A stretch of DNA of 62,665 bases from an uncultured Chromatiales bacterium (GTDB lineage: Bacteria; Bacteroidota; Ignavibacteria; SZUA-365; CAYQST01): contig CAYUYM010000002.1 of the NCBI GenBank assembly GCA_964449305.1, positions 1-62,665 on the forward strand, written 5' to 3'. The translations under genes were made by a program, and so were the position numbers. Position 1 is the stretch's first letter; each line of letters starts with the position of its first letter. Below are positions 61,397-62,665 of the stretch, in pieces. The notes under the pieces are model-generated. The model was not told where the DNA came from and did no database searches. It was given only the letters and a program-made list of their open reading frames with translations.

Positions 61397-62353
61397 ATGA
61401 CCGACCGCACCAGAGGCGCGGACATCGACGACCGCACAGGCTCTGAGATGTTCCTTCGCAACATCATGAACAGCCAGCGCATCGTGGGTGGGGCATTTGA
61501 GGACGCCCTGGCCGACATCCTTGATCAATACGCGGCCTACGCCGGGACGACAGAGGGGGGCAAGGTGTCGGCATCGGTCCTCACGCGGAGGATCGGGCGT
61601 GAGATTCGTCGTGGACTGGCGGGGCTGCATCCCAACGGCTTCGAGTTCGCCATCTGGTTGTGGGATGTGGCGCCCATCCATCATATCGAGATCCAAGCCG
61701 ACTCGGCACTGCGCATGCGTGAGCTGGTGTTCTACTATCTGCGCACGTTGGCGGCGATCATCACGCAGGACTACGTGGCCCAGCAGCCCGACAGGGCGGG
61801 GCAGGTGGTGGAGCTGTTGGATTCGAGCATTCTGTACCTCGACGCCCGCAACCTTCTGGTGTTGTCGGGACTGTTGTCGCAGTATCAGGATCAGGTGATC
61901 CAGCAGTATCATGAGCTGCTGGCGCTGGCGGAGGGGAGGCAGGTGCGGCGCAAGCTTCTGCCGCTTGTCGTCTGTGAAGCCGCAGTGGAGCGTCACCCCG
62001 AACACACGTCACGGTGCCTTGCATTGGCGGAGCGGATCTTTCCGAGCACCGGAGACAGGATACTGGGGTATGCGATGTTCAAGGCATTGACTGCGGCGCT
62101 ATGGCACGGAGAATCGGGTGCCTTCGCGGAGTTTCTTGTATCGCGGGAGTTGGAACCGGACCCCTTCATCCGCAGGATGTTTGCCGATATCATCGCCGGT
62201 GGAGATGCGCGGTTGTTCACACCAGAGTTCGTGACAAAGGCAGTGCCCGTGCTGACCACTTGGGAGCGCGAAGCGGGCCGCCAGCAGCGTCCCGGATTCC
62301 TGCGAGCGTTGAAGGCGCTGGAACGGCGGGGGCCGGACGGGGCCAGACCTTAA
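61397..62353 (+). CDS. Hypothetical all-alpha protein (no family recognised)
   Basis: A 318-codon ORF downstream of the thioredoxin on the same strand. The stop TAA lies at the centre of a 14-bp palindrome. Confidence 0.6.
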   Translation: MTDRTRGADIDDRTGSEMFLRNIMNSQRIVGGAFEDALADILDQYAAYAGTTEGGKVSASVLTRRIGREIRRGLAGLHPNGFEFAIWLWDVAPIHHIEIQADSALRMRELVFYYLRTLAAIITQDYVAQQPDRAGQVVELLDSSILYLDARNLLVLSGLLSQYQDQVIQQYHELLALAEGRQVRRKLLPLVVCEAAVERHPEHTSRCLALAERIFPSTGDRILGYAMFKALTAALWHGESGAFAEFLVSRELEPDPFIRRMFADIIAGGDARLFTPEFVTKAVPVLTTWEREAGRQQRPGFLRALKALERRGPDGARP

Positions 62354-62390
62354 GGTCTTCTTAGACAGATCTTAGAAGACCTTAAGGTCT
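62330..62390. repeat. Palindromic element, copy 1
   Basis: GGGCCGGACGGGGCC followed by AGACCTTAAGGTCTTCT-12 nt-AGAAGACCTTAAGGTCT (17-bp inverted repeat). Each arm contains the self-palindrome AGACCTTAAGGTCT. Confidence 0.9.
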
Positions 62391-62610
62391 CTCTTAGTCT
62401 CCTAAGCTACAATACACATCCGCCCTCTCGCTCAGCGCACCACAAGCTTCGCCACAGCAGCCCCCTGCGGTGCCTGCATCCGTAAGATGTACGTCCCCGC
62501 TCGCAGCCCTCCCAAGCGCCGCGTCATCGCCATACCACCGCTTCGCGCCGTGCGGATTCCTGCGGGCGTTGCAGTCGCTGGAACGTCGCGAGCCGGGGCC
62601 GGACGGGGCA

Positions 62611-62665
62611 GGGCCGGACGGGGCCAGACCTTAAGGTCTTCTTAGACAGATCTTAGAAGACCTTA
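62611..62665. repeat. Palindromic element, copy 2 (truncated by the window end)
   Basis: 55 bp identical to 62330-62384, offset by 281 bp. Confidence 0.9.

Follow-up and report, generated by a model that had tools for sequence, protein, structure and literature searches.

A REPIN-like hairpin element and two candidate RAYT partners in an uncultured Ignavibacteria-like bacterium

What is the AT-rich array of nested palindromes with which our window ends, and why does the assembly break there? The window is a 62,665-nt stretch of DNA from an uncultured Ignavibacteria-like bacterium (positions 1-62665 of contig C2, which totals 91,441 nt). An initial annotation, made from the sequence of the window alone, had offered two kinds of answer: a phased site for protein binding or recombination, or a repeat that resembles a miniature inverted-repeat transposable element (MITE) or a repetitive extragenic palindromic (REP) sequence. 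The second kind holds, since elsewhere in the genome the element brackets genes for REP-associated tyrosine transposases (RAYTs). The first kind is unsupported, given ~35 dispersed loci and no recombinase gene beside the window copy. We are confident that the element belongs to a lineage-specific family of REPs and REPINs (REP doublets forming hairpins) with RAYT partners. REP/REPIN-RAYT is a known kind of system; here its sequence is unusual, and it is ordinary selfish DNA.

The element and its family in the genome

The main features at the end of the window are:

62345..62390, + strand: complete REPIN-like doublet of the TTAA subfamily, 46 bp, AGACCTTAAGGTCT-TCTTAGA-CAGA-TCTTAGA-AGACCTTAAGGTCT
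62393..62406, + strand: accessory mini-palindrome CTTAG-TCTC-CTAAG, directly 3' of the doublet, which folds as a 5-bp hairpin

The element is built from one unit, a perfect 14-bp palindrome (AGACC-TTAA-GGTCT), which starts at 62345, 62377, and 62626 in the window. The first two units, 32 bp apart, are the ends of the doublet, which runs from P1 (62345-62358) through TCTTAGA (62359-62365), a CAGA loop (62366-62369), and a second TCTTAGA (62370-62376) to P2 (62377-62390). The inverted-repeat arms are perfect over 17 bp and extend to 21 bp at 95% identity (62345-62365 and 62370-62390, with a 4-nt loop). The pentamer CTTAR starts at 62349, 62360, 62371, 62381, and 62393. The initial annotation had described the paired palindrome with its 17-bp arms, these CTTAR positions, and CTTAG-TCTC-CTAAG, and all of them are in the sequence as described. 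The phasing of CTTAR at ~11 bp arises because the palindromes are nested, with CTTAAG and CTTAG at their centers; a binding array along one face of the helix is unnecessary to account for it. In other copies, modules of the type TTCTTAGAAG occupy the place of the mini-palindrome, and similar modules flank the elements on contigs C23, C208, C285, C300, C56, and C194.

As single-stranded DNA, the doublet folds into one long hairpin on either strand, with a T.T mismatch at the center of the 7-mers. The folding energies of the two strands are -21.1 and -21.7 kcal/mol (z = -6.6 and -7.2), and none of 200 shuffled sequences folded as well. The core of the window copy has stop codons in all six frames, and the GC content of the element cores is 41%, versus 62.6% for the genome. 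The description of this DNA as AT-rich and dense in stops for its genome was correct.

We searched the host genome, which is a short-read draft of 3.95 Mb in 390 contigs. The initial annotation had proposed a count of the 14-mer as a check, and the 14-mer occurs 34 times in this genome (the control pattern, 0 times) and in none of 100 relatives, which extend up to class level. The looser pattern GACC[AT]4GGTC occurs 69 times, as compared to once for its control, and we found no instance of six further palindromes with matched composition; the counts are thus well beyond chance. Using nhmmer and pattern searches, we placed the 69 palindromic units in ~35 loci over 28 contigs; the window doublet itself scores 55.8 bits (E = 1.7e-14). 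The flanks of the loci are unrelated to each other, apart from complementary stretches of G-run and C-run. By a crude gene call based on GC content at third codon positions (GC3), the loci occupy convergent, tandem, and divergent intergenic spacers. Arrays of 3-4 units with a period of 31-32 nt are found on C46, C65, C77, and C208.

The family has two subfamilies that differ at the center of the unit. There are 35 exact 12-mers with a TTAA center (including the window copies) and 32 with a TATA center, or ~17-18 loci for each subfamily. No doublet mixes TTAA and TATA centers. The exception to these two centers is on C211, where CCTAAAGG lies opposite CCTTTAGG (TAAA facing TTTA). Across the family, the linker between the two units of a doublet is TCTTAGA-N3-4-TCTTAGA, and the copies fold as DNA with -21 to -30 kcal/mol (z = -6.6 to -10.4).

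When 26 complete copies are aligned, 98.6% of the core helix is in pairs. The central pairs swap from UA to AU between the subfamilies with zero unpaired cells, and the outermost pair varies (AU, GC, GU, or CG). In the 7 nt on either side of the core, 61% of the cells are complementary, frequently as a G-run with a C-run. Since both TTAA and TATA are palindromic in their own right, the C211 copy alone separates the conservation of a hairpin from the conservation of identical units. Nearly all copies have T.T at the center of the 7-mers (A.A on the other strand), and this near-constant mismatch gives the element a polarity.

REPs usually carry a 5' foot, GT[AG]G or CGTC, where the hairpin has its base. 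The window copy has none (its flanks are GGGGCC and CTCTTAG), nor does the TTAA subfamily. GTGG...CCAC is present in 3 of 11 TATA copies, at C310:2050-2107 (beside the second RAYT gene, below), C47:8552-8609, and C117:952-1009. In these three, GTGG (5') and CCAC (3') lengthen the stem as a "double foot"; in most other copies, simple runs of G and of C take these places. Near the end of another contig, at C4:67330-67720, we noticed tandem units of ~146 nt, each with two TATA-type palindromes 45 nt apart. These palindromes (A/TACCTATAGGTC ... GACCTATAGGTT) are followed by TTCTAAGA/TTCCAAGG. The array is a composite relative, of greater length, of the TATA subfamily.

Beyond this genome, the two-unit pattern was not found among 185,579 species genomes. 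A pattern scan of metagenome contigs gave a single match (L021), to unrelated AT-rich DNA. A search against RNA families of the Rfam type gave only sub-threshold matches to generic miRNA hairpins and no known RNA family, and a literature search with the unit sequences returned nothing relevant. There was no blastn match to the element in plasmid and phage collections, and we rejected a plasmid or phage origin on this ground.

RAYT genes in this genome and beyond

The initial annotation had also suggested looking for a gene of the HUH (RAYT) type. The genome has two, away from the window, and each lies between copies of a single subfamily:

C6:15102-15749: RAYT, partner of the TTAA subfamily; 215 amino acids; between TTAA elements at C6:14915-14958 and C6:15769-15814
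C310:2226-2873: RAYT-2, partner of the TATA subfamily; 56% identical to its paralog on C6; TATA element ~125 nt upstream

Past the stop codon of RAYT-2, contig C310 has only 18 nt left, and its end has a 16-nt overlap with that of C103. This overlap implies a second TATA element 14 nt after the stop. At each of the two genes, both flanking elements share one orientation relative to the gene. Each RAYT is present in a single copy (by tblastn), and among the matches that we inspected, the two RAYTs are the only genes bracketed by the element. Each RAYT bracketed by its own subfamily is the classic REPtron layout.

These proteins match NCBIfam's REP_Tyr_transpos (E = 1.6e-12) and have 2,659 homologs, many of which are labeled "REP element-mobilizing transposase RayT". 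A search of the genome with Pfam's PF01797 missed both of them, and its only match was a weak fragment on C50. An alignment of 22 homologs shows no variation in NHFH (the HUH motif) or in YIHxNPxKH; the latter begins with YIHRNP in the RAYTs of this genome. When a profile of the 22 homologs was compared to PDB, the sole match was 4ER8, the TnpA-REP of E. coli (E = 8e-6). The AlphaFold 2 (AF2) model of the C6 protein (pLDDT 84, pTM 0.82) has the same best match by Foldseek (E = 3e-7, TM 0.72, rmsd 2.8 Å), and the second to seventh matches are the transposases of IS200, ISDra2, and IS608. Residues 78-93 of the model have pLDDT under 50, and in the alignment of homologs, this stretch (KTLRV-SETLRV and similar) is hypervariable.

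The closest homologs of the RAYTs are ~50-55% identical, and those with a named source are from Chloroflexota; the nearest relatives of the host have no homolog.

Among 60 relatives, only 6 encode a RAYT homolog (36-41% identity), and none of the 6 belongs to the same family. The RAYT genes have 49% and 53% GC, versus 62.6% for the genome. The low GC content and the distribution of homologs suggest that the RAYTs and their AT-rich repeats may have been acquired horizontally.

For five homologs (L103, L105, L107, L108, and L109; 49-55% identity), we could read the DNA around the gene. At all five loci, hairpins of the form AGACC(C)T..AGG(G)TCT adjoin the RAYT gene, on both sides at four of them and, for L107, on the upstream side only. 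For instance, L108 has AGACCCTAAGGGTTT-TCCG-AAACCCTTAGGGTCT 13 nt before the start codon and a second time at the stop codon. At L105, AGACCTTTGGGGTTT-CAAACC-AAACCCCAAAGGTCT is on either side of the gene, and the hairpin upstream of the L109 gene is AGACCTTAAGGGTTTTGGAAAACCCTTAAGGTCT. These hairpins share their AGACC...GGTCT ends with the window element but differ from it at the center, and none of the five loci has a GTAG foot. Three of the five homologs also contain an in-frame copy of the hairpin inside the open reading frame (ORF), between the HUH and tyrosine motifs:

L103:1727-1759, L105:1748-1783, and L109:821-853: hairpin copies within the ORF, which encode K-TLRV-S-ETLRV-like peptides in the hypervariable stretch of low model confidence noted above

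Both RAYT genes of our genome lack such an in-gene hairpin.

The AGACC head that is shared with distant homologs suggests that repeat and enzyme have been inherited together. We can extend this to a tentative proposal, which we consider rather doubtful: the AGACC...GGTCT hairpins may be a separate unnamed type of REP, tagged with neither GTAG nor CGTC, that co-evolves across phyla with one RAYT clade of over 2,600 homologs. The centers of the units (TTAA, TATA, TAAGG, TTTGG, etc.) would then act as an address that separates the repeats of paralogous RAYTs in one genome. If this is true, our genome holds a natural matched pair: RAYTs that are 56% identical, with repeats that are a two-base swap apart per unit.

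How might the element have spread? By analogy with studied systems, it was most likely spread by the two RAYT genes, which are domesticated transposases. The IS608 mechanism also informs this proposal. A RAYT would bind single-stranded DNA that has folded into the hairpin, for instance at the replication fork, and would cut and rejoin the DNA by means of its catalytic tyrosine, through a 5'-phosphotyrosine link, as TnpA-REP from E. coli and the IS200/IS605 transposases do. Doublets would thereby be copied into new intergenic sites. The T.T mismatch and the center of the unit are candidates for the recognition of strand and family. At the end of the window, the element would later have been duplicated in tandem along with both of its flanks, as a unit of 281 bp. 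The analogs for this mechanism are described in work on the TnpA-REP of E. coli (PMC3479197) and in a study of RAYT subclasses (PMC6006769). A role at the level of the host, such as protection of mRNA 3' ends, termination, or protein binding, is possible.

The local duplication, its neighbors, and the scaffold gap

The other features at the end of the window are:

62626..62665, + strand: the opening 40 nt of a second doublet, a perfect match to 62345-62384; ended by the gap
62293..62344, + strand: left flank of repeat unit 1; last codons of the ORF at 61397-62353; duplicated at 62553-62625
62553..62625, + strand: left flank of repeat unit 2; a gene-less and diverged copy of the ORF tail, in which 21 nt are duplicated internally (GGGCCGGACGGGGC twice)
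62456..62552, no strand assigned: right flank of repeat unit 1; 62456-62533 is 98.7% identical to C2:62766-62843, after the gap
61397..62353, + strand: upstream ORF of 318 amino acids; no Pfam family; 31-42% identity in 25 of 30 relatives

The starts of the two doublet copies are 281 bp apart, and the window ends inside the second copy, as the initial annotation had noticed. It had also wondered if the end of the window was the end of a contig. Instead, there is a scaffold gap of 100 Ns at 62666-62765, and C2 continues beyond it: the sequence past the gap runs on into a convergent gene for an S8 peptidase, with a minus-strand frame that enters the gap. Repeat unit 1 consists of at least 52 nt of the ORF tail, the element, 65 nt (62391-62455), and 97 nt (62456-62552). 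The copies of the ORF tail in units 1 and 2 are 86-90% identical, with a 21-nt insertion. The flanking pieces of both units have no further copy anywhere in the genome.

At C11:41514-42111 (L113:515-1112), we found another tandem pair, of 299 bp, which is free of gaps, 98% identical, and centered on a TTAA doublet.

In Pseudomonas, REPINs that are repeated together with their flanks have been described as "ordered REPIN clusters" (PMC3116915). By analogy with these, the 281-bp duplication of the element and both of its flanks is a known type of REPIN cluster. Could it instead be an artifact of assembly or scaffolding, in which strain variants were joined in tandem? The genome is a 390-contig draft from short reads, the second copy abuts the N gap, 62456-62533 recurs at 98.7% identity just beyond the gap, and the element breaks contigs elsewhere. 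On the other hand, one gap-free stretch runs from unit 1 across the junction at 62552/62553 into the start of unit 2, and the two left flanks are 10-14% divergent, with an indel of 21 nt between them, which implies that they are not a collapsed duplicate. The tandem pair on C11 is also gap-free, and clusters of this sort are known for REPINs (PMC3116915). We therefore consider an artifact to be improbable. An exact protein look-up for an independent assembly of the locus found none on record. Artifact or not, the local duplication leaves the nature of the element unaffected.

The window copy sits between two convergent genes. Its neighbors are a thioredoxin-like gene, a conserved gene of unknown function, and the S8 peptidase gene (Peptidase_S8, E = 1.8e-53), and there is no recombinase, partition, or replication gene beside it. 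The upstream ORF is a conserved single-copy gene of the order, and its TAA stop codon (62351-62353) lies inside P1. The alignments of most of its homologs end 5-25 residues short of its C-terminus, and the tail (..ERRGPDGARP) may have been reshaped by insertion of the element. Elsewhere, two REP-adjacent genes (C6:14041-14904 and C208:2480-3271) encode C-terminal sorting domains of the type IX secretion system (T9SS) type (..VYPNPV.. ..LRVYDMMGR..), which is consistent with a host from the Fibrobacteres-Chlorobi-Bacteroidetes (FCB) group.

The short-read assembly breaks at the window copy because the repeat is multicopy and strongly self-pairing. This had been suspected in the initial annotation, and the distribution of loci agrees: 10 of the 35 loci have a contig end or N gap no more than 150 nt away, versus 1.1 expected (binomial P ~1e-7). 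Also, in two cases, a pair of contig ends overlaps inside an element or directly beside one.

Alternative explanations and comparison to known systems

Could the element be something other than a REPIN? A MITE would be a gene-less derivative of an insertion sequence (IS), here with 21-bp terminal inverted repeats, that is moved in trans by a DDE transposase. Inverted 21-bp arms only 4 nt apart, many copies, and intergenic positions would fit a MITE. But the borders have no direct target-site duplication, and any related flanks are inverted complements of each other (G-run and C-run, or CTTCTAAGAA and TTCTTAGAAG). Also, the element, at 46 bp, is shorter than usual MITEs, and in the matches that we inspected, the RAYTs were the only IS-like genes to be bracketed. 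A MITE is thus very unlikely. We give hardly any credence to an array of binding sites for a dimeric protein (iterons, a centromere-like site, or an operator), in which the dyads would be three helical turns apart and CTTAR would be phased at ~11 bp. Such an array would account for perfect 14-bp dyads at 31-32 bp and for the arrays of 3-4 units on C46, C65, C77, and C208. It would not account for ~35 loci that are scattered over many contigs, at promoters as well as at the 3' ends of genes, or for conserved spacers that belong to the hairpin itself. There is no match to a plasmid or phage, no gene for partition, replication, or recombination beside the window copy, and the proteins whose genes are bracketed are RAYTs. 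In E. coli, IHF and gyrase bind REPs, and secondary binding of host proteins may occur here.

The element might also have evolved primarily as a bidirectional terminator, or as a stabilizer of mRNA 3' ends, between convergent genes, rather than as selfish DNA. In the window, a strong hairpin begins at the stop codon of the upstream ORF and lies between convergent genes, as expected for such a role. However, no run of Ts follows (the stem is AT-rich, and then comes CTCTTAGTCTCC), and a terminator scan found 0 sites in 61900-62665. Several copies lie between divergent genes (C1, C11:24124, C77:6764, and C290), and the near-identity of ~35 copies implies copying rather than independent origins. 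We see next to no chance that this was the primary role of the element; a secondary, exapted role as a terminator or stabilizer is possible. Two other candidates were rejected, as the initial annotation had anticipated. An integron attC site or cassette array is at odds with a 46-bp core that has no GTT, with the lack of R''/R' core sites, and with the lack of an integrase among the neighbors; and the spacing of the copies arises from tandem duplication of the flanks rather than from cassettes. As for a CRISPR array, there are just 2-4 units per array, and the spacers of 17-20 nt, conserved from one locus to the next, form part of the palindrome.

What weighs against a REP/REPIN family with RAYT partners? 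The window copy and the TTAA subfamily lack the GT[AG]G/CGTC foot, and the copy number (~17-18 loci per subfamily) is low beside that of classic REPs. RAYT subclasses with atypical, untagged structures are already on record (PMC6006769, PMC3733652). Both RAYTs fall under the curated cut-offs (47.6 vs. 80 bits for NF047646 and 16 vs. 23 for Pfam's Y1_Tnp). The relatives are too distant for an empty-site comparison (the upstream ORF is at most 42% identical). Finally, the activity of the RAYTs and the movement of the element are argued by analogy, while the anatomy of the element, its copy number, its hairpin, the REPtron layout, the identity of the RAYTs, and the hairpins beside their homologs are directly supported.

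As in E. coli (4ER8, PMC3479197) and in Pseudomonas fluorescens SBW25 (PMC3116915, PMC3337134), an inverted doublet of palindromes forms a long hairpin, the copies are dispersed and extragenic, and each family of repeats has one single-copy HUH/Y1 gene that is bracketed by its own repeats. Several REP families with matching RAYTs in a single genome are another shared feature, as are tandem clusters of a REPIN with its flanks. In contrast to E. coli and SBW25, the window copy lacks a GTAG foot, the unit is a perfect, AT-rich 14-mer in a genome with 62.6% GC, there are only ~17-18 loci per family, and the host is an uncultured, Ignavibacteria-like member of the FCB group. Also, the RAYTs have 215 amino acids and just ~16% identity to the TnpA-REP of E. 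coli.

Another point of comparison is subclass 2.4 of TnpA_Y1, which corresponds to the Group 4 RAYTs of Bertels and is associated with "long" and "double foot" REPs (PMC6006769, PMC5581495). The insertion of a REP inside the tnpA-REP ORF was described as unique to this subclass (Quentin et al. 2018, PMC6006769). Our RAYTs and their homologs share with it the HUH motif NH[IFV]H, a hypervariable insertion between HUH and tyrosine motifs (bearing a hairpin in 3 of the 5 homologs), and a patchy distribution across phyla that includes lineages of the Bacteroidetes/Chlorobi type. The modest number of repeats resembles that of Group 4 (~14 there), and 3 of 11 TATA copies have the double foot GTGG...CCAC. 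Unlike subclass 2.4, the two RAYTs of this genome have no in-gene hairpin and have FQ instead of WQ; their YIH[RQ]NP is nearer to the motifs listed for subclasses 2.1 and 2.6; and the stem of most copies ends in AGACC...GGTCT, without a GT[AG]G foot. By comparison of published motifs, the placement of the RAYTs is ambiguous, with a partial fit to subclass 2.4.

The RAYTs share the HUH/Y1 fold with the transposases of the IS200/IS605 family (IS608 and ISDra2), along with a conserved mismatch in the stem and, as predicted here, recognition of DNA hairpins. In IS200/IS605 elements, the transposase gene is carried within a mobile unit whose left and right ends are distinct; here, the RAYT gene lies outside any such unit and is present in a single copy, and the hairpins are spread without the gene.

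The REPIN-RAYT system explains both the striking sequence at the end of the window and the assembly break without any new mechanism. Within this genome, the elements mark stop codons, gene tails, and contig ends that need care during annotation. For the family, the genome adds a clean pair of REPtrons from an uncultured Ignavibacteria-like bacterium, and so from a group outside of the Proteobacteria, where most studies of REPs and RAYTs have been done. The two subfamilies differ solely at the center, or loop, of the 14-bp palindrome, which would make the pair of RAYTs a compact system for asking how a RAYT reads its hairpin.

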